In this document: positions 1,758 through 38,390 of the stretch, one piece after another
Numbering within the stretch: the first letter of the stretch is position 1
Layout: each line of letters opens with the position of its first letter
Notes under the pieces: model-generated
What the model saw: the letters and a program-made list of their open reading frames with translations, nothing else
The model's database searches: none
Told to the model about the DNA's origin: nothing
Source: Acidobacteriota bacterium
Lineage (GTDB): Bacteria; Acidobacteriota; UBA4820; DSQY01
Assembly: GCA_021814355.1 (NCBI GenBank)
Contig: JAKAIJ010000002.1
Span: 1 to 38,496 of the forward strand
DNA: 38,496 nucleotides
Reading direction: 5' to 3'
Made by a program: the position numbers and the translations under genes

Positions 1758-1761
<4 letters not shown>

Positions 1762-3201: not shown

Positions 3202-3314
3202 CGTGCCATTCTAGCACCGGGAAGGGTTCAAAAACCTCCGTATGTGACGGCAATCACTTGCGAAATGCGTCCTATGACGGTACATTGGCCCCAGATGGAT
3301 GGGAGGGTGTCGCC

Positions 3315-6300
3315 ATGAGGAGGACCCTTCAACTCGGTTTGGTGTGCCTGCTCCTGGTGGCCGCGGCGGTCGCCGCCTGGCCGCAGATCCCCGGCGAAGG
3401 GTGGGAGCGGATCGGTCTCCTGGGCGGCAACATCACCGCCGTGGCGGTGAGCCCCGACTACGACGCCGACAAGACCCTCTACGCGGGGATCGCCGGCAGC
3501 GGCCTCTGGCGCAGCACCGACCGGGGAACCACCTGGACCCACCTCTCCAGCGTCCCCAACAACGGCACGGTGGCGGCCATCGCCTTCCGGAAAGACTACT
3601 CCTTCGGGAGGACCATCCCCATGTGGGTGGGAACCCGGGAGGGGACCGTCTACACCTCCCTCACCGACTTCGCCACCCTCCGGTACAGCGTCCCCCTCAA
3701 GGACCGGCTCGGCAACGCGGTCCCCGTGACCGGCATGACGGTGCCGGTGGCCGGGAACTACCTCGGCTGGGTGTTCGCGGGAACCTCCGGGGGCGGCATC
3801 TTCCGGAGCCTGGACGAGGGGGGAACCTTCGGCGCCGCGGGGACCACGACGGACACCGACGACTGCCGGGCCCTCGCCTCGGGGCCCACGGGGCAGGTGC
3901 TCGCCGCCTGCGCGAGCGGCAAGGGGATCGTCTACGCCTTCAGCGGCGAGTGGGTTCCCTCGGGGCCGAGCCCGCTGGTGGGGGCGGTGCCCACCGCCCT
4001 CCACATCTCCATGGACAACGGGAACGCCGTCTGGCTCGGCACGCGGGACTTCGGGTTGTGGCGCTCCACCACCGCGGCCTCCAGCTGGTCCGCCGCCTGC
4101 GACGGGGTCACCCTGGCCCAAACGGCGTTCCAGGTGGGCGCCGTGGCCGCCTGCCCGCGCTTCGCCGCCGACGGCGAGGTCTGGGAGGGGCGCTCCGACG
4201 GGCTGCGGATCTCCACGGACGGGGCCGCCACGTGCGGCTGGGACAACCTATTCGCCAGCGTCACCGGCATCGCCTTCGCCCCCAAGTACCACGGGGGCGG
4301 CCTTTGCGACGCGTTCGTGGCGACCACCACCGGCCTCTTCCTCAAGTCCTGCAACCCCGCGCCCCCCGCGGTCACGGCCACCCCGCCCGCGGTCTCGGTA
4401 CCGGCGGTGGCCGTCCAGCAGACCGCCCTGCCCGGGATCTGGGCCGGCTCCAGCTCGGGGCTTCTGCGGATGAAGACCAAGGACGTCCCGCCCCTTTTCC
4501 TTCAGTACAATGCCTGGGGGGCGTTCAACAACGGGATCCCCGACCTAGTCGCGGTCTGCCTCGCCCCCGCCTACCGGGAGGGCGGCGTCTGCGGCACCGA
4601 CCAGCAGACCCTCGTGGTGGCGGACCGGTCGCTGGGGGTCTTCCGGTCCCAGGACGGCGGGAACACCTGGGCCAAGCTCGACCTCAACGGCGCCGGCCAG
4701 TCCACCTGGCCCGCCAACGCCGTCGCGAACGACCTGGCCATCTCCCCGAAGTACGCGACGGGGAGCGCCGACGAGACCCTCTTCGCCGCCACCTCCCTCG
4801 GGCTCCTGCGCTGGGACGGCCCCACGACGGGGTGGGTCCAACCCGCCAAGGATTTTCCCTACAACACGACCCACGTGGCGGTGCCGCTGACCTACGACCG
4901 CGCGGGGGCGGCGCGGTTCCCCTTCCACACGGTCTACTTCAGCACCGACAACGCCACGAGCCGGGGACTCTACTTCTCCGACAACGACGGGGTTACCGTG
5001 GTCCGGTTCACGGGCCTCACGTTCGCGGACATCACGGCGATCTCGGCTTCCCCGGGCCACGGCGTCACCGACGAGCTGCTCTTCGTCTCCACCGGCGTCC
5101 GCGGGACCTACTTCGCGAGCAAGCACCTCGCCGCGACGGCCTGGTGCAACTTCCGGACGGGTCTGAGCCCCTACGTGCGGGACATGGAGGTCGCCCCCGC
5201 CCTCATGGCCGGAGGCATCCGCCTCGTGGCGGCCACGCTGTCGGGCCCCTTCTATGGCGATTTCGACCCCGCGAACCAGTCCGACGGCTGCGCCACGGCG
5301 AAATACAGCTGGAAGCAGGCCGCCTTCGCCCCCGCCTCGGGCTGCCTCGACACCCTGTCGGTGGGGTTCGCCTACCAGGGGGACGGGACGGTGGTGGCGG
5401 TGGGGACCTCGGAGGACGGGGTCCACGTGTCGGTGAACGGCGGGCAGGCCTTTGACGGAGGAACGGGGTACAACTCGCTTCCCGACGACGTCTACAACGT
5501 CCTGCCCCACATGCGGGACGAAAAGATCCTCTTCGCCAGCTCGCCGAGCTACGGCGTCTTCGTCAGCAAGAACAAGGGAGCCTCCTTCCGCCCCTGGAAC
5601 CGCGGCGCGGGCGGCGCGGGCAACCCCTGCGACGTGGAGGAGGCGTTCGGCCTCGGGATGATGACCGACCGCGCCGGCCCAAGCTGGCCCGGCTGGGACG
5701 TCATCTGGGCGGGGACGCGGAGCGAGGGCATCAAGTACCGCTGGACCGTCTACGACACGACCGCGGGGACCATTGACCTCAGGACCCAAAACGGCTGGTA
5801 CGGCACCAACGTGACCACGGGGCGCTTTGAGCGCTTCGACACGCTCGGGACCGGTCAGCAGAAGCCCGCCTGGTCCACCAGCCCGACCCTGGGGATGTAC
5901 CGGTGCGACCCCACCGTCTGGGCCAACTGGTACGCCAACAACACGGGGCTGGGGGCGACGAACGCGAAGTCCATCCGCTTCGGATACAACGGCCCCGACC
6001 CCGTCCCCGCGCCCAACGGCCAGCCCGTAGCGGGGAAGGTCGGGCCGGGCCTGTGGAACTACTACACGGTTGACGTGCCGGCGGGGAGCGGGAGCCTCCT
6101 GTGCAACCTCGCCGACCTGAGCGCCGCCGCGGGGGACGACCCCGACCTCTACCTCAAGTACGCCGGTCCGCCCACCACCGTCAGCTACGACGCCGTGTCG
6201 GCCACCACGGGCGACGAGCGCATTTGCTCCAAGGGGCTCCCGTTCACCCTGCTCAACGAGAATTTCGAGGGCACGTGGGGGCCGTACGGCGACGTGCCGC

Positions 6301-8948: not shown

Positions 8949-8986
8949 GGGACTGTCCCGCGGCGGAACCGGTCCGCGTGAACCAT

Positions 8987-9023
8987 CGCCCGTCCGCCGC
9001 CGGTGGCCGGCGGCGGACGGGCG
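8987..9023 (+). terminator. GC-rich perfect 17-bp stem-loop between the two giant paralogs (attenuator or terminator candidate, no U-tract)
   Basis: cgcccgtccgccgccgg (8987-9003), loop tgg, ccggcggcggacgggcg (9007-9023). It starts 39 nt after the stop of paralog 1 and ends 18 nt before the ATG of paralog 2. Confidence 0.3.
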
Positions 9024-9040
9024 ACTCGTGGGAGCTGAAG

Positions 9041-12000
9041 ATGAAAACCCTCCGAAGAGCGGCGGTGTCCCTCCTTCTGGTCGCGGCGGGCGGCGTGGGC
9101 TCCATGGCCCAGGTCCCGGGCGAAGCCTGGACCCGGATCGGCCTGCTCTCGGGCAACGTGACGACGGTGGCGGTGAGCCCCGCCTACAACACCGACAAGA
9201 CCCTTTACGCGGGGATCGCCGGCAGCGGCCTTTGGCGCAGCACCGACCGGGGAACCACCTGGGCCCACCTCTCCAGCGTCCCCAACACGGCCACGGTCAC
9301 GGCCATCGCCTTCGACCCGCGCTACACGCCCGGAGCCGGCTGGCCCGCCTACGTGGGTACTCAGGAGGGGTACGTCTACGCCTCCTTCGACGATTTCGCG
9401 TCGGTGAACCCGAGCTACCTTCACCAGTTCCTCAACGGCCAGAGCCAGCCCGTGCCCGTGACGGGCCTCGCGGTCCCCCCGACGGGGAGCTGGCAGCTTT
9501 GGGTCTTCGCCGCGGTGCAGGGGATGGGGGTCTACTACAACTATTCGTACGGGGGCGGTGCCATGTGGCACCTCGATTCCCCCGCCACGATGAGCGACGC
9601 CCGCGGCCTCGCGGTGGGGCCGGCAGGACAAGTGCTCGCGGCCGTCCGTTACGTGGACGGTGGACCGGTCTTCCAGTACGGCGGGGCCGGGACGTGGACC
9701 CCCCTGGGCCCGACCGCGCTGGTGGGTGCCACGCCCATGTGCCTCGCCTCCCGCGCCGACGGCGCGGGCAACATGAACATCTGGGTGGGGACCACCAACC
9801 ACGGCCTCTGGCGCTACCACTTCGTCACAGGCCCGGTGTGGGACCCCGGTTGCGACGGGACGTCGGGGACGACCACGACCCCCTACCCGGCGAGCGCCGT
9901 GGCCGCCTGCCCCAACTACGGGGCCGACGCGGAGGTCTGGGAGGGCCGCTGGAGCGGCCTCTTCACCTCCACCGACGGCGGCGTCACCTGCGGCCTCTCC
10001 AGCCCCGTGGACATCATCAACGCCATCGCCTTCAGCCCCGGTTACCACACGGGCGGGCTCTGCGACGCCTTCGTGGCCACAACCTCGGGCCTCTTTCTCA
10101 GGACCTGCGGCCCGGCTCCGCCCGCGCAGCCGGTGACCCCGCCGGCCGTGACCGTGAGCAAGCTGGCGGTGGCCCAGTCGGCCCTCCCCGGCGCCTGGGC
10201 CGCCTCGGGCTACGGCCTCCTGCGCAACACCACCTGGGACCCGGCGACGGGCCGGCCCTACTTCCTCCAGTACAACGCCTCGGGCTCGGGCCTCGGGGCC
10301 ATACCCACCCTCGCCGGCCTCTGCCTCGCGCCGACGTACGCCCGGAACGGCGCCTGCGGGACCGACGCGGCGACCCTGGTGGCCGCCGAGAAAACCCAGG
10401 GCGTCTTCCGGTCCAGGGACCACGGCAACTCGTGGACCAAGCTCGACTACAACTCCCAGGGGGTCTCCACCTGGCCCTCCGGGGCGAGCGCCGTCACCGT
10501 GAACGACCTCGCCATCTCCCCCAAGTACTCCACGGGCGGGGCGGACGAGACGATCTTCGCCGCGACGAGCGGCGGCCTCTACCGCTGGGACGGCGCCGCC
10601 ACCGGGTGGGTGCGCGTCGCCATTGACTGGCTGTACAACTTCACGAAGGTGGCGCTCCCCAACAGCTACGACCGCGCCGCGGGCACCAGCTGGCCCTACC
10701 AGACCGTCTACCTGGCCACCGACAACGCCACCGCTTCCGGCCTCTACATCTCGTTCAACAACGGCCAGACCATCGCCAGGGTCAGCGACACCGATGTCCA
10801 GGCCCCCGACATCACCGCCATCGCCTTCTCGCCCGGGTACGGGGTGAGCGACTACCTCGCTTTCGTCTCGAGGGCCGCCGCGGGGACCTTCTACACGAAC
10901 GACTGGGCCGGCGGCGCTCCGGTCTTTTGGTGCCCCTTCAACTCGGGCCTGCCCTCGTTGAAGATCCGGGACCTCAAGGCGGCGCCCGCCTTCTTCGGGT
11001 CCAGCTATGTGCGCCTCCTCGCGGCCACCGATGTGGGGCCAGCCTACTGCAACTTCCTCAAGACCAACGCCTCCTACCAGTGCTTGGCCATCACCTACGC
11101 CTGGGCCTCCTCCTCCATCACGTTTCCCTCCGGGTGCACGGATACCCTCTCGGCGGCCTTCGCCTATCTGGGCGACGGGTCGGTGGCGGCCGTCGGGACC
11201 GCCGAAGACGGGGTTTTCTTCTCCGTCAACGGCGGACAGACCTTCCCCGCAACCAGGGCGGGCGTCGGCTACCGCTCCCTCCCCGACGACGTTTGGACCA
11301 CGTTCCCGTACATGCGGGGGGACATGAACGACCCGAGCGCCGCCTCGTCCATCCTGCTCGCCGCCTCGCCCACCTTCGGGGTATTCGTCAGCCACAGCAA
11401 GGGGACCACGTTCCAACCCTACAACGGTCCCGGGTGCACGCCTCTGAACGACGGCGCCTACGGTTTCGGAGGAGGGTTCGAGCGGCTCGGCGCCGACCCC
11501 AACTACGCGGGCTGGACCGACGACGCGCTCTTCGCCGGCACCAAGTGCGGAGGCCTCTACTATCGGCGCATCCTCGCCCGCTACGGGACGACGGTCTACT
11601 ACCCCTACTACCTCGACTGGTACGCCTGGGCGCCGACCAACCCCAACCCGGCCCCGCCCCAGCCCGTCGGCCCCTTCCAGAAGATCGTGACCCTCACCAA
11701 CGGGAACATCGCCGAGTCCATACGCGCCTCGAGCGCCAACGACGTCTGCCCGGGACTGGGACAGTACTGGTGCCCGGCCGGGACGGCCACCGAGTTCAGC
11801 GCCGACAACGCGGGGCTGCCCAGCGCGGACACCCCCTCGGTGAGGTACGGGACGACCACGGCGCCGGCCCCCACTCCGCTCACCCTGGGCGTGAACCGGG
11901 CGGGCGCGGTCGCCCAGGGCGTTTGGAACTACTACACGATCCAGGTGCCGGCGGGCCTGGGCCGCCTCAGCGTGGTCCTCCACCAGCTCGACCAGGACGC

Positions 12001-13687
12001 GGACGTCTACCTCCGCTACGCTGGCCCCCCCACGCCGAGCTACTACGACTACGTGTCGGCCGCGGGGGGGATCTATCCCGACAACGTGGAGGTGAGTCCC
12101 TCGAGCACGCCGGTGCCCCTGGTGGCTGGAACGTGGTACATCGGCGTCCGCGGCTTCGCCGCCGGGACCACCCACTACACCCTCACCGTCTCCGACGCCC
12201 AGCGGCTCACGAGCGGCGTGGGCGTCTCGGGCTCCGTCGCGCAGTACGCCAACATCCACTACTACATCGTGGTCCCCGCGGGGTACCCCCACCTGAACCT
12301 CACGCTGACGGGGCTCTCCGGGGACGCGGACCTCTTCGCCCGCTCCGGAGTCGTGGCGTCCAACACCTCCTACGAGTACTGGTCAACCGCGGGCGGGACC
12401 ACCAACGAGAACATTGACATCACCACTGCCACCACGCCGCCCCTCGTCTCCAACACCGTGGAGTTCGTCGACGTCTACGGGTACGCCGCGGGACCGATCA
12501 GCTACACGGTCACGGGCAGCCTCCTCACGACGCTCGCCCCCGGCGGCACCGCCGCGGTGGAGCCCTGGCCACCGGCCAAGGAAGGCGGCGCACCCGCGGC
12601 TTCCCTGAGCGCACCGGTGAACCCCGACAGCCTGCCGGGCCCCCTGGCCCCGGCGGCCGGCACGGTCTGGGGCACGGTGAGCAACTCGGGCGTCTACCGC
12701 GGGTCGGTGGTGGGCGGCTTCGCCGCCTCGCCTGCGGCCACGACCTGGGCGGCCCGCAACGGTTCCGGGCCGGGCGCCCTCGACCTCTCCCGCAGCAGCC
12801 AGTCGGTCATCCAGCTCACCGACGGGACGCTCCTGGCCGGGCAGGCGGGCGCCCTCTGGCAGTCCCCGGCGCCCGACGAGGGGGCGTCTACTTGGAACGA
12901 CTTCTCCGCGGGGCTGAGCGGCACGAGCCTCGACATTCGCGACTTTCTGGAGTGCGGCAACGGCGACGTCCTCGTCGGCGTCAACGGGACGGCGGGCCAG
13001 GGCGGCGTCTGGCTCTCGGGGAGCCAGGGCCGCTACTGGATGAACCTCTCCTCGGGGTTCGACGCCTCCTCCCAGAAGCTCGAGACTCTCGTGAAGGACA
13101 ACCCCGTCACCGGCGCGGTGCAGTACTACACGGGCACCGACAGCACCGGGGCCTACACCCGGACCATCACGCCCCAGCCCTACCCGGTGGTGTCGGGCAT
13201 CAGCGTGGCTACCGGCCCCGCCGCGGGCGGGACTTCGGTCACGGTGACCGGCAGCAACTTCTCCAACAGCTGCCCCACCGGGACGCCGTCGGACTGCCCC
13301 TCGGCCGCGCCCCTCGTACTCTTCGGCGATCGGGCCGTGACGGCCACTTTCGTGAACTCCGGGCAGCTGACGGCCGTCACCCCCTACCACGGCGCGGGGG
13401 CCGTGACCGTCCGCGTGGTCAATCCCGACTCCCGGATGGGAACCTGCGCCTGCACCTTCACCTTCACGGGCGACGATCCCATTGACCTCCGGCTCAGCCG
13501 CGTCTACGTCTCCGGCGGGTGGAGGGTGCGCCTCAGTTGGGGGGTGAGCACGACGGTGAACATCCAGCGCGCCACCGACGCTCAGTTCACCCAGAACGTG
13601 GTGAGCGTGACCGCCACGGGGACGAACTGGACCGACATGAGCTCGGCGGGGAGCGACGGGACGCAGTACTTCTACCGCGTTCTTTAG
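9041..13687 (+). CDS. giant secreted multidomain protein, paralog 2 (BNR/Asp-box propeller regions, two PPC domains, IPT/TIG-like, C-terminal FN3-like)
   Basis: Last 1548 codons of track ORF 6440..13687. ATG 9041 is preceded by GGGAG. Signal peptide MKTLRRAAVSLLLVAAGGVGSMA. N-terminal region is collinear with paralog 1 (LYAGIAGSGLWRSTDRGTTWAHLSSVPN). PPC-like WNYYTIQVPAGLG...DADVYLRY and IHYYIVVPAGYP...DADLFAR. IPT-like AAGGTSVTVTGSNFS. Confidence 0.85.
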   Translation: MKTLRRAAVSLLLVAAGGVGSMAQVPGEAWTRIGLLSGNVTTVAVSPAYNTDKTLYAGIAGSGLWRSTDRGTTWAHLSSVPNTATVTAIAFDPRYTPGAGWPAYVGTQEGYVYASFDDFASVNPSYLHQFLNGQSQPVPVTGLAVPPTGSWQLWVFAAVQGMGVYYNYSYGGGAMWHLDSPATMSDARGLAVGPAGQVLAAVRYVDGGPVFQYGGAGTWTPLGPTALVGATPMCLASRADGAGNMNIWVGTTNHGLWRYHFVTGPVWDPGCDGTSGTTTTPYPASAVAACPNYGADAEVWEGRWSGLFTSTDGGVTCGLSSPVDIINAIAFSPGYHTGGLCDAFVATTSGLFLRTCGPAPPAQPVTPPAVTVSKLAVAQSALPGAWAASGYGLLRNTTWDPATGRPYFLQYNASGSGLGAIPTLAGLCLAPTYARNGACGTDAATLVAAEKTQGVFRSRDHGNSWTKLDYNSQGVSTWPSGASAVTVNDLAISPKYSTGGADETIFAATSGGLYRWDGAATGWVRVAIDWLYNFTKVALPNSYDRAAGTSWPYQTVYLATDNATASGLYISFNNGQTIARVSDTDVQAPDITAIAFSPGYGVSDYLAFVSRAAAGTFYTNDWAGGAPVFWCPFNSGLPSLKIRDLKAAPAFFGSSYVRLLAATDVGPAYCNFLKTNASYQCLAITYAWASSSITFPSGCTDTLSAAFAYLGDGSVAAVGTAEDGVFFSVNGGQTFPATRAGVGYRSLPDDVWTTFPYMRGDMNDPSAASSILLAASPTFGVFVSHSKGTTFQPYNGPGCTPLNDGAYGFGGGFERLGADPNYAGWTDDALFAGTKCGGLYYRRILARYGTTVYYPYYLDWYAWAPTNPNPAPPQPVGPFQKIVTLTNGNIAESIRASSANDVCPGLGQYWCPAGTATEFSADNAGLPSADTPSVRYGTTTAPAPTPLTLGVNRAGAVAQGVWNYYTIQVPAGLGRLSVVLHQLDQDADVYLRYAGPPTPSYYDYVSAAGGIYPDNVEVSPSSTPVPLVAGTWYIGVRGFAAGTTHYTLTVSDAQRLTSGVGVSGSVAQYANIHYYIVVPAGYPHLNLTLTGLSGDADLFARSGVVASNTSYEYWSTAGGTTNENIDITTATTPPLVSNTVEFVDVYGYAAGPISYTVTGSLLTTLAPGGTAAVEPWPPAKEGGAPAASLSAPVNPDSLPGPLAPAAGTVWGTVSNSGVYRGSVVGGFAASPAATTWAARNGSGPGALDLSRSSQSVIQLTDGTLLAGQAGALWQSPAPDEGASTWNDFSAGLSGTSLDIRDFLECGNGDVLVGVNGTAGQGGVWLSGSQGRYWMNLSSGFDASSQKLETLVKDNPVTGAVQYYTGTDSTGAYTRTITPQPYPVVSGISVATGPAAGGTSVTVTGSNFSNSCPTGTPSDCPSAAPLVLFGDRAVTATFVNSGQLTAVTPYHGAGAVTVRVVNPDSRMGTCACTFTFTGDDPIDLRLSRVYVSGGWRVRLSWGVSTTVNIQRATDAQFTQNVVSVTATGTNWTDMSSAGSDGTQYFYRVL

Positions 13688-17824: not shown

Positions 17825-17884
17825 CTAGCAGGCGGCTGAGAAACTCGCACGCGGCCTACGGGAGTTTTTCAGCAGCCTGCTAGC
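17825..17884. repeat. 60-nt solo palindromic hairpin, identical to the arms of the element at 22175-22730
   Basis: ctagcaggcggctgagaaactc pairs with gagtttttcagcagcctgctag over 22 bp, with one G-A mismatch and one G-T pair. The loop is gcacgcggcctacgg. It lies between the prmC stop (17915) and the cyclase start (17815). Confidence 0.8.
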
Positions 17885-17914
17885 ACCCACGAGAAGGCGC
17901 AGGGGCGCGCGTTC

Positions 17915-18757
17915 TCAGAGCTTTTGCCAGACGGCCACGCGCAGCCGGCCCGCGAGGTCCCTCACCCCGCGGAGCCAGCGCAGGCTGGGGGAGAGACGGC
18001 GCAGGGAGCGGGCCCTGCGCGCCTGCGCCACGCCCAGCTCGGCCACCAGGTGCCCGCCGGGCCGTAGCGCCTGTTCGGCCCACCGCCCCAGGTGCCGGTA
18101 CGGCCCGAGCGGGTCGCCGCTGGGGATCAGGAGCGCCGCCCGCGGCTCGTGGTCGCGGACCTCCGGAGGAAGGGAGGGCCACTCCTTCGCGGTGATGTAA
18201 GGCGGGTTGCTCACCAGGAGGTCCAGGCCCGCGAAGGGGCAGGGGCCCTCGAGATCCGCCCGGACGAGCCGGGCGCGGGCCGCGGCGGCGAGGTTGCGTC
18301 GGGCCCACGCGAGCGCCTCCCGCTCCCGCTCCGCGCCCCAGAGGACGGCCCCGGGGTGCTCCCGCGCCAGCGCCGCCAGGACGCACCCGGACCCCACGCC
18401 CACCTCCAGGACGCGGGGCGCGGGTTCCTCGCCGAGGCAGAGGAGCGACTGCTCTACCAGGTGCTCGGTCTCGGGACGGGGAATCAGGCAGCCCGGGCCG
18501 ACGCGGACGCGGAGGCCCCAGAACTCCTGGAAGCCCCGCAGGTGCTGGAGGGGCTCGCGCGCCTCGCGGCGGTGGAGGAGGGCCTCGAAGATGCCTCCCT
18601 CCCCGCGCGGGAGGGGGGCATCCCGGTGAGCCAGAACCCAAGCCTTGTCGCGGCCCAAGGCGTGGGCCAGCAGAAGCAGAGCGTCGTAGGCGGGATGCGG
18701 AATTCCGACGGCCTTCAGCCGCCGCGCCCCGGAACCGAGCGCGGTTCCTAGTGTCAT
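17915..18757 (-). CDS. prmC: release-factor glutamine N5-methyltransferase
   Basis: Frame of ORF 17915..18925. Start moved to ATG 18755-18757 (MTLGTALGSGARRLKAVGI), which overlaps the upstream stop as ATGA. SAM-binding motif VLEVGVGSGCV. Catalytic NPPY (LLVSNPPYI). Confidence 0.88.
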   Translation of the reverse strand: MTLGTALGSGARRLKAVGIPHPAYDALLLLAHALGRDKAWVLAHRDAPLPRGEGGIFEALLHRREAREPLQHLRGFQEFWGLRVRVGPGCLIPRPETEHLVEQSLLCLGEEPAPRVLEVGVGSGCVLAALAREHPGAVLWGAEREREALAWARRNLAAAARARLVRADLEGPCPFAGLDLLVSNPPYITAKEWPSLPPEVRDHEPRAALLIPSGDPLGPYRHLGRWAEQALRPGGHLVAELGVAQARRARSLRRLSPSLRWLRGVRDLAGRLRVAVWQKL

Positions 18758-20075: not shown

Positions 20076-22178
20076 ATGGCCCTGCGCGAGCGCCTCCTGG
20101 CCCACCTGCGCGCCCTGCCCGCCGGGGAGCTCTCGACCCGCAGCCGCATCGCCGCGGAGTTGGGGCTCTCGCCGCGGGAGCGGCGGGGGCTCGCGCCGCT
20201 GCTCGTCCAGCTCGTCTCGGAGGGGCGGCTCCGATCGAACCGGGGGCGCTACGCCGCCGTCGCGGAACCCGCGGAGGTCTGCGGGACCTTCCACGCGGCC
20301 CGCGGGGCGTACGGTTTCGTCACCCCGGACGGAGCCCCCGACGGCTCCCGGGACGTCTTCATCCCCCCGCCGGCCACGGCCGGCGCCCTGGAGGGCGACC
20401 GCGTCCGGGTCCGCGTGGCCCCGCGTCTTCCGGGAGACAAAGGCCCCGAGGGGGAGGTGACCGCCCTGCTCGCCCGCTCCCGGCGCCCCGTGGCGGGACT
20501 GGTCCGGGGCGGCTTCCTCTATCCCTTCGGCGCCGTCCCGAATCCCATCGCCCTCCCCCGGGGCTCCGCCGGGGAGGGAGGGGTGGCGCTGGTGACCCTT
20601 TGTCCGGGCGAAGGGCCGCCCTTGGCTGAATCGGTGGAGGTCGTGGGTGCCTTCGAGGATCCCCGGACGCCGGTTCGGGTGGCCGAGGCGCGTTACGGCC
20701 TCACCCATGAGTTCCCCCCGGCGGTGGCGCGAGAGGCGGACGCCCTTCCCGAGGAGCCTCCGGCCGGCGACTTGGAGGGGCGGGCGGACCTACGGTTCCT
20801 GCCCGCGGTCACCGTGGACCCCGAGGACGCCAAGGACTTCGACGACGCCCTCTCCCTGCGGCGCGAGGGAGCGGGGTGGCGGCTCTGGGTCCACATCGCC
20901 GACGTCTCGCACTACGTGCGGCCCGGGTCGGCGATGGACGCGGAGGCGCTGCGCCGGGGGAACACCACCTACCTGCCGGGGGTCGCCTACCACATGCTGC
21001 CGTCCCGGCTCTCGGGCGGCCTCTGCTCGCTCGTCGAGGGGCGGGATCGGCTCACCTTCACCGCGGAGCTCGCGGTGGCTCCGGACGGCAGGGTCGCCGA
21101 AGCCCGGTTCCGTAAGGCCGTCATCCGGTCGCGCCGCCGCCTCACCTATGGCGAGGCCCAGGCGGCGCTGGACGGCGAAGGCTCCCTGGAGCCCGATCTA
21201 GCCGCGCTCGTGGGGGAGCTGGGGGCCCTGTCGGAGGTGCTCTCGGCGCGCCGAGCGGCCCGAGGCTCGCTGGACCTGGACCTTCCCGAGGCGGACCTCC
21301 GGTTCGGCCTCACGGGCCGGGTGGAGGAGGTGCTCCCCGCGGCGAGGCTCGCCTCCCACCGGCTCGTGGAGGAGTGCATGCTCCTTGCGAACACCGCCGT
21401 GGCCGAGGCGCTGGAGCGCGCCGGCGCCCCGTGCCTCTACCGCGTCCACGAGGCCCCGGACCCGCGGAAGCTGGAGGCCCTGCGTCCCCTGCTCAACGCG
21501 CTGGGGCTGGGCGAGGCGAGCCGGGGCGACCTGGCGGACCCCGCCATCCTCCGGGCGGTCCTGGAGAGGGCCCGGGGCCACCGGGCGGAGAAGCTGGTCT
21601 CCTACCTCGTCCTGCGGGGCATGATGCAGGCGCGCTACGCCGTGGCCAACGCCGGCCACTTCGGCCTTGCCCTCGCGACCTACGCCCACTTCACGAGTCC
21701 CATCCGCCGTTATCCCGACCTCCTGGTCCACCGCGCCCTCGCGGCGGCGCTGGGCCTTGGCCCCGCGCCGGAGGGGGACCTCGCCTTCGCCGCCGCGCAC
21801 TGCTCGAACGCCGAGCGAGCGGCGGACGCGGCCGAGCGAGAGGTCATGGTGTGGCACCAGATGGCTTTTCTCTCGGGCCGGCTGGGCGACACCTTCGACG
21901 CGCTCGTCCTGGGGTTCTCGCGCGCGGGGATCCGCGTGGAGCTGCTCGACCACCTCATCGAGGGGCTCTGCCCATTCCGGCTGGTGGAGGACGACCGCCT
22001 GCGGGTGGACCCCGACGGCCTGAGGGCGCGCGGCGTCTACTCGGGGGCGGTCCTGCGGGTGGGGGACCCGCTCGCCGTGAGGCTGGTCCGCGTGGACGCC
22101 ACCGCCCTGGAGGCCCAGTTCGTCCCGGAGGGGTGGCCGGGGCCCGTGCGCGGCCGGGGGGGCCGCCGAGGGCGCTAG
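20076..22178 (+). CDS. rnr: ribonuclease R (RNase II/VacB family 3'-5' exoribonuclease)
   Basis: Frame of ORF 19881..22178, start at ATG 20076 (MALRERLL), 4 nt after the upstream stop. RNB core (DPEDAKDFDDALS, WVHIADVSHYV, HFGLA...YAHFTSPIRRYPDLLVHR). S1-like C-terminus and a basic GRGGRRGR tail. The TAG stop lies inside the left arm of repeat A. Confidence 0.9.
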   Translation: MALRERLLAHLRALPAGELSTRSRIAAELGLSPRERRGLAPLLVQLVSEGRLRSNRGRYAAVAEPAEVCGTFHAARGAYGFVTPDGAPDGSRDVFIPPPATAGALEGDRVRVRVAPRLPGDKGPEGEVTALLARSRRPVAGLVRGGFLYPFGAVPNPIALPRGSAGEGGVALVTLCPGEGPPLAESVEVVGAFEDPRTPVRVAEARYGLTHEFPPAVAREADALPEEPPAGDLEGRADLRFLPAVTVDPEDAKDFDDALSLRREGAGWRLWVHIADVSHYVRPGSAMDAEALRRGNTTYLPGVAYHMLPSRLSGGLCSLVEGRDRLTFTAELAVAPDGRVAEARFRKAVIRSRRRLTYGEAQAALDGEGSLEPDLAALVGELGALSEVLSARRAARGSLDLDLPEADLRFGLTGRVEEVLPAARLASHRLVEECMLLANTAVAEALERAGAPCLYRVHEAPDPRKLEALRPLLNALGLGEASRGDLADPAILRAVLERARGHRAEKLVSYLVLRGMMQARYAVANAGHFGLALATYAHFTSPIRRYPDLLVHRALAAALGLGPAPEGDLAFAAAHCSNAERAADAAEREVMVWHQMAFLSGRLGDTFDALVLGFSRAGIRVELLDHLIEGLCPFRLVEDDRLRVDPDGLRARGVYSGAVLRVGDPLAVRLVRVDATALEAQFVPEGWPGPVRGRGGRRGR

Positions 22179-22730
22179 CAGGCGGCTGAGAAACTCGCAT
22201 GGGCCGCGCGCAAGAGGCTTGGGGGGAGGGGTCTGGCCCTCGGAGGATCTCTGGCGCGACGCCAGCGCCCTGGGATGCCACGCAAGGCGCGGGGAGGAGA
22301 CAGATGCAGGGGGCATCGGCGACGAACCGGAACGCGGCGGGGTGCCCAGGCCGCGGCGTCCCTTCGGGTTGCCCCGGAGCCGGGCGTCTTCCATGTCGGC
22401 CCTCGTCTGCGTGCCGTCCCGCACGCCTGCCTCGGGCCTTCGCGAATCTGCACCGATCCGGGGGGCAACGCGCCGGGAGCCCTCCGAGGGCCAGACCCCG
22501 GGATGCTAGGCACGGCGAGGAGGGCGATGCGGTGTCCCATCGTCAACGAGCCGCAACAACGCAGATGGCCCCCAATCCCTTGCGCCCGAATGGGTTGCCG
22601 CGGCACGGCCCCGTCTGCTATGTTGTCGCTCCTAGACGATGTGCGAAGACATCGCCGGCGTCGCGCCGCCTTGCATCCGGAGTCGTGGCGCTGGCAACGC
22701 GGCCTACGGGAGTTTTTCAGCAGCCTGCTA
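22175..22730 (+). repeat. composite hairpin-closed non-coding element, copy A (outer copy of about 284 nt with a nested 272-nt copy at 22228-22499)
   Basis: Arms 22175-22196 and 22710-22730 pair over about 21 bp. The ends are identical to the solo hairpin 17825-17884. A perfect 19-bp inverted repeat (22228-22246 and 22481-22499) bounds the nested part. Only Arg/Pro-rich artefactual ORFs are present. Confidence 0.8.
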
Positions 22731-22778
22731 ACCGCGTCCCCGCGGTATACTCGGACCACGCCCGGAGGGAAGAGCGCG

Positions 22779-24260
22779 ATGCGAATCCGGCCCGTAAAGA
22801 TTGACACCTACCGAGAAAACATCGTCTTTCTCCGCAAGGACTGCGACCTCTGCCGCGCGCAGGGGTTCGCGGCGCTCAGCAAGGTGGAGGTGGCCTCCAA
22901 CGGCCGGTCCCTCGTGGCCGTGCTCCACGTCACCGACGAGCCGTTCTTGGCCAAGGGGGAGGTAGGGCTCTGCGAGTACGCCTTCCAGCAGCTCGGGGTG
23001 CCCGCCGGGGCGGAGGCGCGGGTCCGCCACCTGGATCCCGTGCGCTCCGTGGACCTCGTCCGGAAGAAGCTCCACGGCGAGGTCCTAGACCAGGAGGCCT
23101 ACCGCCGCATCATCCGGGACATCGTGGAGAACCGCTACTCCAAGGTGGAGCTCACGGCCTTCGTCATCGGCTGCGCCCAGGGGTTCATGGACCGCGAGGA
23201 GATCTTCTACCTCTCCCGGGCCATGGTCGAGCAGGGCCAGCGCCTCGACTGGGGTCAGGAGATGGTGGTGGACAAGCACTGCATCGGGGGCATCCCGGGC
23301 AACCGCACCACCATGGTGGTGGTCCCCATCGTGGCGGCCTACGGGCTCACCATCCCCAAGACCTCCTCGCGCTCCATCACCTCCCCAGCGGGCACCGCCG
23401 ACACCATGGAGGTGCTCGCCAACGTGGACCTCACCCTCGAGGACCTGCGGCGGATCGTGAAGGCCGAGGGGGGCTGCCTCGCCTGGGGCGGCTCCTTCGC
23501 CCTGTCGCCCGCCGACGACATCATCATCGCCGTGGAACGGCCCCTCAACATTGACGCCGTGGGCCAGATGATCGCCTCCATCCTCTCGAAGAAGCAGGCC
23601 GCGGGCTCCACGCACGTCCTCATTGACATCCCCGTGGGACCGACGGCCAAGGTCACCACCATGGCCCACGCCACGGCGCTGAAGAAACTGTTCGAGTACG
23701 TGGGCGAGAAGATGGGGATGACCGTGGAGGTGGTGGCCACGGACGGCCGTCAGCCCGTGGGCCGGGGCATCGGGCCCGTGCTGGAGGTCCGCGACGTGAT
23801 GGCGGTCCTCTCCAACGCCCCCGACGCCCCGGCGGACCTGAGGGAGAAGTGCCTGGACCTCGCGGGGCGCATCCTGGACTTTGCCCCCGCCCTGCGGGGC
23901 GGTCACGGGCGGCGCATCGCCGAGCGTATCCTCCACTCGGGGGAGGCCTTCGAGAAGATGCGGCGCATCGTGGAGGCCCAGGGCGCGCGCGCGCCCAGGG
24001 AGCCCGGCCCCATCACCCGCGAGGCCCTGGCCTCCTCGACGGGGACCGTGCTGGCGATAGACAACCACGAGCTCGCGGCCTGCGCCAAGCTCGCCGGTGC
24101 CCCCGTGGACCAGGGGGCGGGACTCGATCTGCTCAAGAAGGTGGGGGATCGGGTGCTCTCCGGGGAGCCGCTCTTCCGCATCCACGCGGAGGAGACGGCG
24201 GACATGGGATTCGCGTGGGACTACTGGACGCGCCACCCCGAGATGGTGGAGATCGGGTAG
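22779..24260 (+). CDS. deoA: AMP phosphorylase-type thymidine phosphorylase family protein
   Basis: Frame of ORF 22275..24260, ATG 22779 preceded by GGAGGGA. The roughly 85-aa N-terminal extension (MRIRPVKIDTYRENIVFLRKD...) is typical of the archaeal-type subfamily. Core motifs VDKHCIGGIPGNRTT and KTSSRSITSPAGTADTME. The neighbouring R15P isomerase and RuBisCO genes support the call. Confidence 0.78.
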   Translation: MRIRPVKIDTYRENIVFLRKDCDLCRAQGFAALSKVEVASNGRSLVAVLHVTDEPFLAKGEVGLCEYAFQQLGVPAGAEARVRHLDPVRSVDLVRKKLHGEVLDQEAYRRIIRDIVENRYSKVELTAFVIGCAQGFMDREEIFYLSRAMVEQGQRLDWGQEMVVDKHCIGGIPGNRTTMVVVPIVAAYGLTIPKTSSRSITSPAGTADTMEVLANVDLTLEDLRRIVKAEGGCLAWGGSFALSPADDIIIAVERPLNIDAVGQMIASILSKKQAAGSTHVLIDIPVGPTAKVTTMAHATALKKLFEYVGEKMGMTVEVVATDGRQPVGRGIGPVLEVRDVMAVLSNAPDAPADLREKCLDLAGRILDFAPALRGGHGRRIAERILHSGEAFEKMRRIVEAQGARAPREPGPITREALASSTGTVLAIDNHELAACAKLAGAPVDQGAGLDLLKKVGDRVLSGEPLFRIHAEETADMGFAWDYWTRHPEMVEIG

Positions 24261-24289
24261 CCCGCGGCGTCCGGAGGGCGGAAGGCGGC

Positions 24290-25156
24290 ATGGGCAGGGT
24301 GGACGAGGCGGTCCGCAGAATCCGCGCCCTGGAGATCCAGGGGGCGAACGCCATTGCCCGCGCCGCCCTCGCCGCCCTGGCGGCGGACCTGGACGCGGAT
24401 CGGGCGGCGGACGGCGCCGCCCTGGCCGCCGCGCTCTCGGGGGCCCGGCCCAACGAACCCATGCTGCGCAACCTCCTGGCCCGGTTCCTGGAGGTGCCGG
24501 TCCCACCCGGCGGGCGCCGCGCCCGCGCCGAGGAGCTCTTGTGCGGCCTCGACGAGGACGAGCGGCGCATCGCCGCGACCGGCGCCGGGCTGGTGCGCGA
24601 CGGGATGAGCGTCTTCACGCACTGCCACTCGAGCACCGCCGTGGCCATCCTGCTGGAGGCCCACCGCCTGGGGCGCAGGTTCCGGGTCCTCAACACCGAG
24701 ACCCGTCCCCGCTACCAGGGGCGCATCACCGCTCGGGAGCTGGCCGCCGCGGGGGTGGAGGTGGTCCACATGGTGGACGCCGCGGCCAAGCGCGCGCTGG
24801 ACGGGGCGGACCTCTTCCTCTTCGGGGCCGACGCGGTCCTCGGCTCCGGGTACCTGGTGAACAAGGTGGGCACGGGGCTCTTCTGCGTCGTGGCGGCGCG
24901 GTACGGGGTGCCCATCTACTGCGCCACCCACACCCTCAAGGTGGTCCGGGACCGGGCGGACGAGGCCGTGGAGCAGCGCGACCCGAAGGAGGTCTGGCCC
25001 GACGCCCCCGCCGGCGTCGTGGTCGAGAACCCCGCCTTCGACAAGGTCTCGCTCCAGTACGTCACCGCCTTCGTCACGGAGCGCGGCCTGCTCGCCGACA
25101 TTCTCGCCGGAACGCCCGCCGCGGACGCTGGTGTGGCGAGTTGGAAAGACGATTGA
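24290..25156 (+). CDS. ribose-1,5-bisphosphate isomerase (eIF-2B alpha/beta/delta-like family)
   Basis: Frame of ORF 23849..25156, ATG 24290 (MGRVDEAVRRIRALEIQGANAIA). Motifs VFTHCHSSTAV, ETRPRYQGR and FGADAVLGSGYLVNKVGT. An MtnA-type isomerase cannot be excluded on sequence alone; the gene context favours R15P isomerase. Confidence 0.72.
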   Translation: MGRVDEAVRRIRALEIQGANAIARAALAALAADLDADRAADGAALAAALSGARPNEPMLRNLLARFLEVPVPPGGRRARAEELLCGLDEDERRIAATGAGLVRDGMSVFTHCHSSTAVAILLEAHRLGRRFRVLNTETRPRYQGRITARELAAAGVEVVHMVDAAAKRALDGADLFLFGADAVLGSGYLVNKVGTGLFCVVAARYGVPIYCATHTLKVVRDRADEAVEQRDPKEVWPDAPAGVVVENPAFDKVSLQYVTAFVTERGLLADILAGTPAADAGVASWKDD

Positions 25157-25232
25157 ACCGACCTCGCCACACTGCGGATGGTGGCGGGACCATTTCTTCC
25201 TGTGCTATCCTCGCGCCCGGAAAGGGAGGCAC

Positions 25233-26510
25233 GTGAGCAGGGAGACCCTGGCCTATTTGGACCTCGGCGGAGCTGTCCGGGAGGGGGACCTCGCCTGCCG
25301 GTTCCGCGTGCGCCCCGCGGCGGGCGGCAGCCTCGAGAAGGCCGCCAACGCCCTGGCTGCCGAGTCCTCCATCGGCACGTGGACCGAAGTGGCCACGCTC
25401 TCCGGCGGCCTGCGCGACCGGCTGCGGGCCCGCGTGGTGGCTCTCGAGGGCGACCAGGCGACGATCGCCTACGCCGCGGAGCTCTTCGAGGGCGGAAACA
25501 TGGCCCAGGTCTACTCCAGCGTGGCGGGGAACATCTTCGGCATGAAGGAGGTTGACGCCCTCAGGCTAGAGGCGGTGCGGTTCCCCCCCGGGCTGGTGCG
25601 CAGCTTCCCGGGCCCCGCGCGTGGCGTGGCGGGCATCCGGAAAGCCCTCGGCGTGACCGGCCGACCGCTCGTGGGGACGATCGTGAAGCCCAAGATCGGG
25701 CTTCCCCCGGCCGAGCAGGCGGCGGTGGTCTACGAGGCCATGGCCGCGGGGTGCGACGTGGTGAAGGACGACGAGAACCTCACGTCCCAGACGTTCTGCC
25801 CCTTCGAGGAGCGCCTCCGCGCCTGCCTGGACGCGGCGAGGCGGGCGGAGGACGAGACGGGCCTGCCCAAGGGCTACATCCCCAACGTGACCGCCCCCAC
25901 CGAGATCATGCTGCGGCGGGCGGGGCTCGTGGCCCACCTGGGGGGCCGCATCGCCATGGTGGACCTCGTGACCGTGGGATGGTCCGGCGTCCAGAGCCTC
26001 CGCAACGCGGGGCTCGACCTCATCCTTCACGGCCACCGCGCCATGCACGCTGCCTTCACGAGGGACCCGTCCCACGGCATCGCCATGGCGGTGCTGGCCC
26101 GGTCGGCCCGGCTGGCGGGCGTGGACCAGCTCCACGTGGGCACGGTGGTGGGCAAGATGGAGGGCCCGGCGCACGAGGTGGCGCGCAGTGCCGCCGCGCT
26201 TCTCACGACGGGGGCGGAGCCGGGCGGGGGCGCAGACGGCCAGGAATGGACGGGCGTCGCGCCGGCGCTGCCCGTCGCCTCGGGGGGGCTGCACCCCGGC
26301 CACGTTCCCGCGGTGGTTGGTCTCTTGGGACGGGACGTGGTCCTCCAATTCGGCGGCGGAATCCACGGCCACCCCGGCGGCACCCGGGCGGGGACCCGCG
26401 CGGCGCGCCAGGCCGTGGACGCGGTAATGGCCGGTGCGAGCCTGCGCGAGGCGGCCCGGAGCGCCCCCGAACTGGCCGCGGCGCTCGAGCGGTGGGGGGA
26501 CGCGGCGTGA
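25233..26510 (+). CDS. rbcL: ribulose-1,5-bisphosphate carboxylase large subunit, form III-like (no small subunit gene)
   Basis: Frame of ORF 25131..26510, GTG 25233 preceded by AAGGGAGG. Catalytic signature is complete: GTIVKPKIG (K175/K177), VVKDDEN (K201, D203, E204), HGHRAMHA (H294, R295), LHVGTVVGKMEG (H327, K334), ASGG and FGGGIHGHPGG. Confidence 0.88.
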   Translation: MSRETLAYLDLGGAVREGDLACRFRVRPAAGGSLEKAANALAAESSIGTWTEVATLSGGLRDRLRARVVALEGDQATIAYAAELFEGGNMAQVYSSVAGNIFGMKEVDALRLEAVRFPPGLVRSFPGPARGVAGIRKALGVTGRPLVGTIVKPKIGLPPAEQAAVVYEAMAAGCDVVKDDENLTSQTFCPFEERLRACLDAARRAEDETGLPKGYIPNVTAPTEIMLRRAGLVAHLGGRIAMVDLVTVGWSGVQSLRNAGLDLILHGHRAMHAAFTRDPSHGIAMAVLARSARLAGVDQLHVGTVVGKMEGPAHEVARSAAALLTTGAEPGGGADGQEWTGVAPALPVASGGLHPGHVPAVVGLLGRDVVLQFGGGIHGHPGGTRAGTRAARQAVDAVMAGASLREAARSAPELAAALERWGDAA

Positions 26511-28300
26511 GGCAGCTGGTGCTCTTCTCCCGGGATTTGCGTGCGCCGGACCTCTGCACCTCCTTCCTGCCGCCCGGCTGGAGGATCGTCTCGGTGCAGA
26601 ACGCCGAGGACGCCCTGACCACCCTCCACGGAGTCAGCCCCGACCTCTTCATCCTGGACGGCGACCCCGAGGAGATGCCCGGCGGCCAGTTCGTCCGCCT
26701 GGCCTGGGAGCGCATGGGCCTCATGCCTCCCGTGCTCTTCGCCCCGGAGGCGCCGCTCCCGTCCGAGGAGGCGGCGGCGCTCGAGGGCGTGGGCGTCATG
26801 AAGGTCCTGAAGCATCCGCTGGAGGGAGCCGAGTTGGAGATGGCCCTGGCTCCATTCCTGGTGCCGCCCGTCCTGCCGGCCATGCGGATCACCGAGCTGC
26901 TGGCCTCGGCCCTCAAGGACACGGAGAGCCGCCACATCTGGTTCGCCCCCGGCGGGGCGCCCATGGGCCTTCTTCTGGGCGGCGGCTACATCGAGGCCCT
27001 GGTCCACGCCTCGTTCCGGGACCTCTGGCGGGCCCGCCTCACCCAGGCCGGGTACGCGCTCCCGCCGATGCGGGGGGAGGTCCTCGACGACCTAGTCTTC
27101 CTGGAGGCGGAGCTCCCCAAGAACGACCCGGAGCTCCTGGCGCTGAAGCAGCAGGCGCTCGCGCTCTGCCTCCAGTCCGTGCCCCCCTCCCAGATCCTCA
27201 AGCTCCAGGAGCGGCGGGGCCTCTCCCGCAACCCCCTCCTCCCGGTGCCCATCCCTTCCCTGCTCCCCATGCTCGTAGAGCGCCTGCCCGAGGCGGACCT
27301 GGCCCCGCTGAAGGAGCCCTCCGTCTCCGTGGTGAAGAAGCAGGGGGCCGACCTGACGGGCTTCCACCTGACCCCCCAGGAGGGGTACATGCTCTACCAG
27401 TGCGAGCAGCCGGTGCGCGTCTCCCGGCTCCTCCAGGCGGGGGCCGTGCCCGAGGGCCAGGCCCTCAAGACCCTCTTCCTCCTCCTGTTGCTGGGTGCGG
27501 TGGAGACCCGACCCGACGCCGGCGAACCGGTGCGGCTTGCCCTGCTCCAGGAGAATATCGAGAAGGAGCAACGGGTCATCTCGCTTCAGTCCACCGTCAT
27601 CGAGAGCCTGGTGGCATCCTTCAACGCCCCCGGGCTCAACCCGCGCCAGATTCTGGGGGTGGCCCAGAACGCCGGGATGGAGACCATCACGCAGGTCCAC
27701 GACACGCTCCACGCCCGCCTGAACCCGGACCTCCTCCACCCGGAGGTGCGCCAGAGGTACGTGAAGGACCTGCTCTACCTCCGGGCAAAGCTCAGCGAGG
27801 CCTACCTCATGCTCCAGGCCTCGGCCATCGAGGAGAAGCACCAGGAGCGGGCCGCGGGCCTCACCGCGGAGGTGGAGGCCCGCCGCATCGGCGACGTCAA
27901 GACCGCCGTCCAGAAGGTCGGCGAGGCCCACCAGCGGGAATGCGAGAGGCTCTTCCGCTATGCCGAGGAGCTCTACAGGCAGGAGCAGGTCTACGAGTGC
28001 ACGCAATACCTCAAGCTGGCCCTCTTCCACAACCCCGGCTCGGCCCCCTGCCACCAGCTGATGGGCAAGATCCTGGCCACCAACCCCAACGCCCGCTCCA
28101 AGCACCAGGCCGAGAGAGAGTTTCTCCAAGCCGTCGAGCTGGACCCCTGGGAGATCGGCTACCTGCTCGACCTTGCCCAGTTCTATCTGGACCAGGGGCT
28201 CGTGGCGCGCTGCAAGACCTATCTCGAAAGCGCCCAGAAGCTTAGCCCAAAGGACCCGCGGGTGCAGAGCATCCGTTCTAGCCTTCGGCAGAGGGAATAA
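26507..28300 (+). CDS. receiver-like / DUF4388-like / degenerate J-like / TPR protein, start/stop-overlapped with rbcL
   Basis: Frame of ORF 25751..28300. The proposed GTG 26507 overlaps the rbcL TGA (GTGA), with GGTGGGGGG upstream. N-terminal CheY-like fold pattern (LVLFSRD...DLFILDGD...VMKVLKHP). J-like segment ILGVAQNAGMETITQVHDTLHARLNPDLLHPE lacks HPD. C-terminal TPRs (YECTQYLKLALFHNP, YLLDLAQFYLDQG). The start codon is uncertain. Confidence 0.6.
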   Translation: MRQLVLFSRDLRAPDLCTSFLPPGWRIVSVQNAEDALTTLHGVSPDLFILDGDPEEMPGGQFVRLAWERMGLMPPVLFAPEAPLPSEEAAALEGVGVMKVLKHPLEGAELEMALAPFLVPPVLPAMRITELLASALKDTESRHIWFAPGGAPMGLLLGGGYIEALVHASFRDLWRARLTQAGYALPPMRGEVLDDLVFLEAELPKNDPELLALKQQALALCLQSVPPSQILKLQERRGLSRNPLLPVPIPSLLPMLVERLPEADLAPLKEPSVSVVKKQGADLTGFHLTPQEGYMLYQCEQPVRVSRLLQAGAVPEGQALKTLFLLLLLGAVETRPDAGEPVRLALLQENIEKEQRVISLQSTVIESLVASFNAPGLNPRQILGVAQNAGMETITQVHDTLHARLNPDLLHPEVRQRYVKDLLYLRAKLSEAYLMLQASAIEEKHQERAAGLTAEVEARRIGDVKTAVQKVGEAHQRECERLFRYAEELYRQEQVYECTQYLKLALFHNPGSAPCHQLMGKILATNPNARSKHQAEREFLQAVELDPWEIGYLLDLAQFYLDQGLVARCKTYLESAQKLSPKDPRVQSIRSSLRQRE

Positions 28301-38122: not shown

Positions 38123-38390
38123 AATAAGGCATGGTCGCGACGGAGGCCAGCCGCGATGGATGGCAAGGAAGCGAGCGAAGGGCGATGTCGGAGACCATCG
38201 GATGAGCGAGCTGACGCAGCCAGGCGCGCGGATGGCCCCGTCCCTCCGGGCGCGGGCGGCTCCCGTCGCATGGCTTTGTTGGCTTCCCTCGGCAGGCGGC
38301 AAGCCCAGAGCCTGCCTGCGGTCGGCCGCCTCGCCCTGCTCGGGAGGCGCCACGCGCGCGGCCGCGCCCTATTTACGGATAGGCCCTAAG
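38105..38390 (-). repeat. hairpin-closed non-coding element, copy C (286 nt; sense orientation inferred as minus)
   Basis: Arms 38105-38129 (ctaagggcctatccgtaaaataagg) and 38367-38390 (ccctatttacggataggccctaag) pair over about 22 bp. The interior shares ordered blocks with copy B on the same strand (atggtcgcg, ccagc.gcg, gcaagg, ggcgatgtc N6-7 catcg, acgcagc, ccct.cgggcgcg, gctttgtt, cgcgcgcggcc). Confidence 0.7.

Follow-up and report, generated by a model that had tools for sequence, protein, structure and literature searches.

A probable miniature transposable element of a family with IS1182-type ends, carrying a second member nested within it, between rnr and deoA of an Acidobacteriota bacterium

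What is the gene-free, hairpin-closed segment that separates rnr from deoA in contig JAKAIJ010000002.1 of an Acidobacteriota bacterium (lineage UBA4820, DSQY01; assembly GCA_021814355.1)? The stretch analysed here is the whole of that contig, which belongs to a metagenome-assembled genome (positions 1 to 38,496; 38,496 nt, hereafter the window), has a GC content of 72%, and encodes a DeoA protein whose nearest named relatives are found in metagenome-assembled genomes of Acidobacteriota/Thermoanaerobaculaceae. An earlier note on this DNA had placed the segment in a repeat family with conserved, covarying helices and had proposed either a structured RNA or single-stranded DNA, or a mobile unit that lands in hairpin loops. 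Here, we present evidence that the segment, which we call copy A, is very probably a non-autonomous DNA transposon, a miniature inverted-repeat transposable element (MITE), that depends on transposases of the IS1182 family and that later received a second member of its family in its first hairpin. The family belongs to a known kind of element, the MITEs with IS1182-type ends, and represents no new class.

Anatomy of copy A and its relatives in the window

The gap between rnr (RNase R) and the AMP-phosphorylase gene deoA, which starts at 22779, measures 600 nt and is free of genes, as the earlier note had held: GC content is equal at the three codon positions (GC1 = GC2 = GC3 at about 0.7) in all six frames, and three-base periodicity is absent. 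Copy A and its parts, two of them hairpin units designated D1 and D2, are arranged as follows.

22175 to 22731, plus strand: copy A, a composite (probable MITE) in which the D1 hairpin of an outer element encloses another member of the family
22175 to 22199, plus strand: left terminal inverted repeat (arm) of A, CTAGCAGGCGGCTGAGAAACTCGCA, identical to 17825-17849
22227 to 22499, plus strand: nested element A', a complete family member in the stem of D1 of A, with two hairpin units
22477 to 22587, minus strand: portion of the D1 hairpin unit of A on the 3' side of the nested insert, matched by the D2 model on the opposite strand (40.8 bits, E = 8e-6)
22584 to 22702, plus strand: D2 hairpin unit of A (covariance model, 118.4 bits), including the apical hairpin CGATG-N8-CATCG at 22637-22654
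22698 to 22731, plus strand: right arm of A, CGCGGCC followed by the right terminal inverted repeat GAGTTTTTCAGCAGCCTGCTAA

Copy A begins with CTAG at 22175-22178 and ends with a degenerate CTAA at 22728-22731. The stop codon of rnr, which had been placed in the left arm, is indeed the TAG at 22176-22178 within the terminal CTAG. The closing arms (22176-22208 and 22698-22730) are complementary at 85% over 33 nt, and the CGCGGCC of the right arm supplies the 3' strand to the helix at the base of the interior. The minimum-free-energy fold of copy A, which departs strongly from that of shuffled sequences (z = -6.8), contains all of the internal helices drawn in the earlier note: 22208-22225 paired with 22569-22585, 22594-22607 paired with 22684-22698, and the small hairpin at 22637-22654. 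Three further copies lie in the window and, like A, B and C are oriented as their flanking genes.

1769 to 2054, minus strand: copy B, simple in structure and about 285 nt long, with ends that have decayed to CAAG and CCAG
17825 to 17883, plus strand: solo 59-nt palindrome, an internally deleted A-type copy with CTAG at both ends, between prmC and a gene for a 1375-aa protein
38106 to 38389, plus strand: copy C, a remote member of the family whose arms differ (GGGCCTATCCG...)

The ends of copy A are those of the solo palindrome: its first 25 nt and its last 34 nt correspond to the palindrome at 100% identity. The kinship of B and C with A, also proposed earlier, holds as well. Homology between A and B spans the whole of B, with 79.7% identity over 232 nt. 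Copy C was identified by covariance model and nhmmer: its D2 unit scores 41.3 bits (E = 6e-6) and its D1 unit, on the opposite strand, 32.3 bits, so that C is a distant member of the family, and its collinear nhmmer match outscores 300 of 300 shuffles.

Two features of copy A had escaped the earlier note, namely that D1 is the reverse complement of D2 and that a second complete member is nested at 22227-22499. Relative to B, A carries these 273 nt as an extra segment, closed by 36-nt arms of its own (22228-22263 and 22464-22499; complementarity 81%) and devoid of CTAG ends. The segment scores 30.9 bits with nhmmer, against a shuffle maximum of 2.4, and the D2 covariance model finds both of its hairpin units (22254-22370, minus strand, 49.3 bits; 22358-22473, plus strand, 40.8 bits); it is therefore a complete family member lodged in the stem of A's D1. 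In a sister strain, contig L188 has an A-type copy without the nested element (positions 297-580) and also a C-type copy that bears an A'-type insert. Copies A, B, and C are present in all assemblies of the window's strain.

A mobile family with the ends of insertion sequences

Because a gene with a TPR_21 domain reads through copy B, one translated frame of B could serve as a query. Searched against 1.84 billion representative proteins, it retrieved 39 representative short "proteins" with a common peptide, RPKGSGGAGASAALALLDD..SPASRRLASAPAALGTR, which are spurious open reading frames (ORFs) over other copies. The alignment of these peptides led to metagenome contigs, with more than 600 pattern matches, of which 118 were confirmed and 80 loci fetched (cited below by L numbers); the family is thereby represented on over 100 metagenome contigs. 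With copy B as the nhmmer query, 112 hits were obtained, of which about 36 span the whole element and many of the rest are truncated where a contig stops; at one locus, L149, five copies lie within 12.7 kb. Exact-word and BLAST searches retrieved no further copies: a scan of genome contigs with the 20-mer GACATCGCCGGCGTCGCGCC gave 96 chance matches, none of which extended, a 31-mer common to A and B had no match in metagenome contigs, a 29-mer of the core had none in viral contigs, and BLAST of the element against plasmids and phages was likewise negative.

When copies are aligned together with their flanks, similarity begins and ends exactly at CTAG, some 280 bp apart, and the flanks are unrelated. 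The consensus reads CTAG, an arm of about 25 nt, D1, CC-NNN-GG, D2, the second arm, and CTAG. A standard element thus measures about 280 bp, has a terminal inverted repeat of about 22-28 bp, and presents D1 as the D unit in reverse; the elements run from 280 to 556 nt. There is no coding capacity, reading frames shift from copy to copy, and variability by codon phase is flat (0.098, 0.110, and 0.091) with no three-base periodicity. On the same grounds, shifting frames and the absence of codon periodicity, we rejected a small conserved ORF whose start would be the ATG that follows an AGGAGG motif in the D1 hairpin. Read on the opposite strand, D1 scores 55-87 bits against the D2 covariance model in every subfamily, compared with 27-40 bits for the reverse strand of D2 itself; the interior thus consists of a single hairpin unit of about 115 nt in inverted duplication, and the whole element is dyad-symmetric. 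Derivative forms include a copy with D1 only (L170), a copy from which D1 is deleted (L178), and one whose left arm is of one type and whose right arm is of another (L157).

Two other arrangements were observed at individual loci. At L169:6148-6460, terminal repeats of the main subfamily surround an unrelated AT-rich interior that has a long inverted repeat of its own. At L189:9927-10657, on a 4.9-Mb contig (ENA ERZ26167216 / NCBI), four D2 units stand in tandem, one in a full-length copy and three more beside it, and the array has been called as a 218-aa protein (P0128).

The junction occupied by copy A lacks it in related genomes. In L191, whose DeoA is 81% identical, the order rnr-deoA is kept and the gap is only 59 nt, against 600 nt in the window; this absence is established at the level of synteny, the flanks being too diverged for base-by-base alignment. 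No copy was found in the 21 kb and 18 kb available from two further relatives, L097 and L098 (DeoA identity 88% and 78%, respectively). In L098 the rnr-deoA gap (202 nt, 8057-8257) is occupied by another kind of element, about 150 nt long, at L098:8056-8205, with inverted ends TAGGGCCCCAATCCCGCGATGG and CCATCGCGGGATTTAGGCCCT, so the same junction has been colonised independently.

The ends of the family are shared with autonomous insertion sequences (ISs). At L178:1565-3112 lies a 1.55-kb IS that encodes a 431-aa transposase scoring 389 bits against the NCBIfam model NF033551 (IS1182 family; cut-off 270 bits); among plasmid proteins, the nearest homologues of this transposase carry the annotation IS1182 family transposase. 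Over 23 of 23 nt, the ends of the IS (CTAGGAGCGTGTCCGAGAATTAG) match those of the MITEs in L128 and L129. A second IS, of 1.47 kb, lies at L113:1894-3367 and encodes a transposase with DUF772 and DDE_Tnp_1 domains; its ends are identical over 21 of 21 nt to those of a MITE located at L113:139-414. Identity between the two transposases is 25%. At L178 the IS abuts the D1-lacking MITE and a single CTAG is common to both; this would be expected if CTAG, or the TA within it, is a duplicated target, and the CTAG therefore probably derives from the target rather than being owned by each element. The CTAG at both ends of most copies, the shared CTAG of L178, and a direct TAA repeat that flanks copy C (38106-38108 and 38387-38389) together argue for target duplication.

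The transposase ORF of the second IS, L113:1974-3367, extends into the right terminal repeat and has met no stop codon where the contig ends. If this IS ends in the usual CTAG, its TAG would be the stop codon of the transposase, the same terminal motif that stops rnr in the window.

The family is thus small and non-coding, has terminal inverted repeats, occupies many unrelated sites with sharp boundaries, is present or absent at an orthologous junction, and, for two subfamilies (those of L178 and L113), shares its terminal repeats with an autonomous partner, attributes by which MITEs are recognised. Conserved terminal repeats together with target-site features of a known IS family, an observation of the kind that the earlier note had said would refute its proposal, are what we found; its broader notion of a mobile repeat family with conserved, covarying helices is supported.

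Several observations weigh against so simple an assignment. The best NCBIfam hit of the L113 transposase is IS1182, at 181 bits and thus under the cut-off of 270. No transposase gene is present in the gene tables of the window, and no IS with the window's own arm type (CTAGCAGGCGGCTGAGAAAC) was found in about 60 kb of that genome. Among the fetched loci there is no exact empty site, and CTAG is palindromic, so that duplication of TA, duplication of CTAG, and a CTAG that is part of the repeat look alike at filled sites. The absence of CTAG ends from A' and the TAA flanks of C indicate that the superfamily uses more than one kind of end. Finally, descent from an IS leaves the interior unexplained: model search detects D units in neither IS, and the core shares no more k-mers with them than chance predicts; even so, the units are conserved between subfamilies with partner transposases at 25% identity. 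An origin of the core from inside an IS was rejected on the same two grounds, the lack of model hits and of k-mer sharing above chance.

Covariation, uneven constraint, and rival explanations

The compensatory changes that the earlier note had seen between A and B are real and generalise to 28 copies. These were aligned with MAFFT without fitting to any structure, and pairs were taken from RNAalifold. Both sides have changed in 57 of the 105 predicted pairs; shuffled alignments give 20.5 +/- 2.8 such pairs, and slid partners give 9-18. The paired fraction of cells is 96.6%, compared with 89.2% after shuffling. The largest share of doubly changed pairs, 24 of 33, lies in the outer stem formed by the terminal-repeat pair. 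As both ends must match the same transposase, paired change there needs no base pairing. This argument does not cover the double changes of D1 and D2, where 13 of 23 and 10 of 22 basal-stem pairs, respectively, have changed on both sides and the apical stems add more. A candidate long-range pairing between the loops CGAGGAG (D1) and CTCCTCG (D2) was discarded, one side being changed without compensation in the window copies.

Variability is distributed very unevenly, at 0.31-0.43 in the apical loops, 0.20 in the subterminal arms, and 0.045-0.055 in the internal loops. Between subfamilies, the interior is 0.80 identical and the subterminal arms 0.40, so that the earlier description of a conserved interior with variable arms stands at that level; it fails for the outermost 12 nt, which are conserved at 0.81. 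Nor is the pattern the reverse of that of an ordinary MITE, as had been suggested, since the terminal 12 nt are conserved and the terminal 21-23 nt are the ends of IS1182-type ISs.

How, then, are the helices maintained? One possible but doubtful answer is that they are kept at the level of DNA with no selection on RNA, by intrastrand template switching of quasi-palindromes in combination with the matching of both ends to one transposase. The excess of double changes in the outer stem, the match of subfamily end types to different ISs, the dyad symmetry of the whole element, and the weakness of strand asymmetry all agree with it, but template switching leaves unexplained why the unpaired internal loops are 6-9-fold less variable than the apical loops, and why four G-U wobble positions have stayed uncorrected in 18-26 of the 28 copies. 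A functional structured RNA, formed by the two-hairpin interior and acting in cis on host transcripts or as an RNA belonging to the element, with the ends as its vehicle, would be compatible with a MITE; the strong covariation within D1 and D2 and the near-invariance of the internal loops speak for it, as do the element GC content of 62-75% across hosts of 49-74% GC and the common direction of the three window copies and their flanking genes. G-U cells outnumber A-C cells by 150 to 39. Ninety-two of the G-U cells, however, fall at the four fixed positions, outside which the excess is small (58 against 39 cells; 36 against 29 pairs). Across the family, copies lie 34 in the same and 30 in the opposite orientation to flanking ORFs, and 5 against 5 between co-directional gene pairs, by crude ORF-based gene calls. 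Promoter-like and terminator-like sites were not found in the elements, and Rfam, to which the earlier note had looked for a check, gave no match at gathering or permissive thresholds, just weak matches to GC-rich hairpin models, far under their cut-offs. Both strands fold nearly equally well (z = -7.1 and -6.3), and the element lacks any polarity of its own, since D1 and D2 are reverse complements. The structured RNA of the earlier note fares poorly against these observations, and we regard it as unlikely.

The other half of the earlier proposal, a mobile unit that inserts in the loops of pre-existing hairpins and takes its arms from the target, with the 59-nt palindrome as an empty site, drew on the fact that A equals that palindrome plus 498 nt at one point. 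Family members do insert in the stems of other copies, and IS1272, of the IS1182 family, has been reported to target inverted-repeat structures without target duplication (PMC5678879). The palindrome, however, consists of the left arm, CGCGGCCTACGG, and the right arm; it keeps both terminal repeats and, in addition, CGCGGCC, a strand of the interior's basal helix that stands before the right arm in every subfamily irrespective of arm type. The palindrome is therefore a copy that has lost its interior and not an empty target. The arms, moreover, match the ends of autonomous ISs over 21-23 nt, the sequence outside CTAG is unrelated rather than the two halves of a hairpin, and L157 combines arms of two different types, all of which make insertion into hairpin loops very improbable. 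Movement of a repetitive extragenic palindromic (REP) element or REPIN by a REP-associated tyrosine transposase (RAYT), or of a palindrome-associated element of the IS200/IS605 type by a Y1 transposase, is hardly credible here: inverted pairs of hairpin units do recall REP doublets, and the tandem D2 array of L189 might be read likewise, but the units measure about 115 nt and not 20-40 nt, the long terminal inverted repeats are shared with DDE insertion sequences, and the gene tables, available for the window and for part of the loci, list no Y1 transposase (whole genomes were not searched).

On the MITE reading, a transposase supplied in trans would bind the terminal repeats and insert the element at CTAG, duplicating CTAG or TA. 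The conserved, symmetric D hairpins might act at both ends of the element, as a platform to which the transposase or a host protein binds, or as a fold-back that joins the two ends; alternatively, they might just render the transcribed element harmless. Something constrains the D units, and RNA, single-stranded DNA, and a DNA-protein complex are all compatible with the evidence, although dyad symmetry inclines us toward a role at both transposon ends. The residual puzzle is a hairpin core that is about 80% identical among subfamilies with subterminal arms at 40% and partner transposases at 25% identity. We suggest, tentatively and with more doubt than conviction, that the D hairpin of about 115 nt is a selected module, a binding or synapsis platform or a structured RNA, that has been refitted with the ends of different IS1182-type lineages and has spread through Acidobacteriota of 49-74% GC. 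If so, this MITE superfamily would be "payload-conserved", its core persisting while its ends are exchanged.

Known systems, consequences for genes, and neighbouring features

Small intergenic repeats with terminal inverted repeats, long hairpins when transcribed, and internal insertion or deletion forms are familiar from the Correia elements of Neisseria and the enterobacterial repetitive intergenic consensus (ERIC) of enterobacteria, and ERIC shows compensatory changes. We know of no autonomous partner with identical ends for either. The present family is unrelated to them in sequence and hosts, and two autonomous partners have been found. REPINs are REP doublets moved by RAYTs, in which two inverted palindromic units form a larger hairpin; the present units, in contrast, are about 115 nt long and enclosed by the terminal repeats of a DDE transposon, and no RAYT is seen in the available gene tables.

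The closest counterpart that we know by description is MITEPye1 of Paracoccus yeei, an IS1182-family MITE with 4-bp direct repeats (PMC11578231). Like the elements described here, it has no ORF, terminal repeats that match IS1182, short flanking repeats, an intergenic location, and a predicted long stem-loop; a relationship in sequence is not expected. It occurs at one to three copies per chromosome, whereas the present family is abundant, has hosts of 49-74% GC and a strict CTAG flank, and possesses a dyad-symmetric two-hairpin core common to subfamilies with different subterminal arms. The window elements differ from ISs of the IS1182 family in having no transposase, while the ends of the MITEs are those of the L178 IS. 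IS1272 is reported to replace target inverted repeats without duplication (PMC5678879). Members of the present family are often found inside inverted-repeat structures too, here other copies, and targeting of the IS1272 type may relate to their frequent nesting; unlike IS1272, they end at CTAG, and one CTAG is common to abutting elements.

Elements in the window sit in gene junctions, where they alter genes: they supply the stop codons of rnr and kdsC, the latter a TAA (38120-38122) within the left arm of C, and they lengthen a TPR protein by about 96 aa at its C-terminus. That protein is the product of the gene with the TPR_21 domain upstream of B (1758-2795, minus strand), which reads through B because the left CTAG of this copy has decayed to CAAG. 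The last ~96 aa of the annotated 345-aa protein are thus translated transposon, and the protein is present in a public protein collection with NCBI and ENA as its sources; its stop codon overlaps the start of a sigma-54 activator gene. A genuine stop donated by the solo palindrome, the TAG of an ORF at 17880..18641, was considered and rejected, as the ORF has no family match and prmC, which ends at 17915, runs in another frame. One copy lies in frame inside a YhcG-like gene: at L190:1753-2031 (Logan SRR22388213), a decayed copy is part of a YhcG_C/DUF1016-like gene that adjoins a type I restriction specificity (Methylase_S) gene. Beside this copy there is also a SIR2_2/STALD and ThsB_TIR gene pair that resembles the Thoeris defence system.

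The family matters for annotation, since its elements break metagenome assemblies, many copies standing at contig ends, and yield spurious ORFs, as the 39 protein clusters from one frame illustrate. For the biology of mobile elements it offers a large set of natural variants, with very different rates of evolution in the outermost 12 nt, the subterminal arm, and the structured core, and with two autonomous partners in hand the function of the core can be tested.

Downstream of copy A, an operon of AMP phosphorylase (DeoA-like), ribose-1,5-bisphosphate isomerase (IF-2B family), and the RuBisCO large subunit (window 22779-27000) is conserved in these Acidobacteriota, the other examples being L097, L098, and L191. 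In all four relatives a conserved GTATACT motif lies about 20-50 nt upstream of the deoA start (window 22754-22760, downstream of the MITE; L191:2383-2389; L097:9934-9940; L098:8233-8239), as GGCGTATACT in L097 and L098. The motif may be the -10 element of the AMP-salvage operon.

Elsewhere in the window, ARAGORN calls a tRNA-Thr(CGT) at 18113-18197 (plus strand) within the prmC coding region; the Rfam tRNA model fails to confirm it, and the call is therefore probably a false positive. Two very large ORFs occupy 3258-13687 on the plus strand, 3258-8948 (1896 aa) and 6440-13687 (2415 aa), which overlap as listed. They have TIG, PPC, and sortilin-like matches and have in common long direct repeats, about 5.7 kb apart and 71-81% identical.

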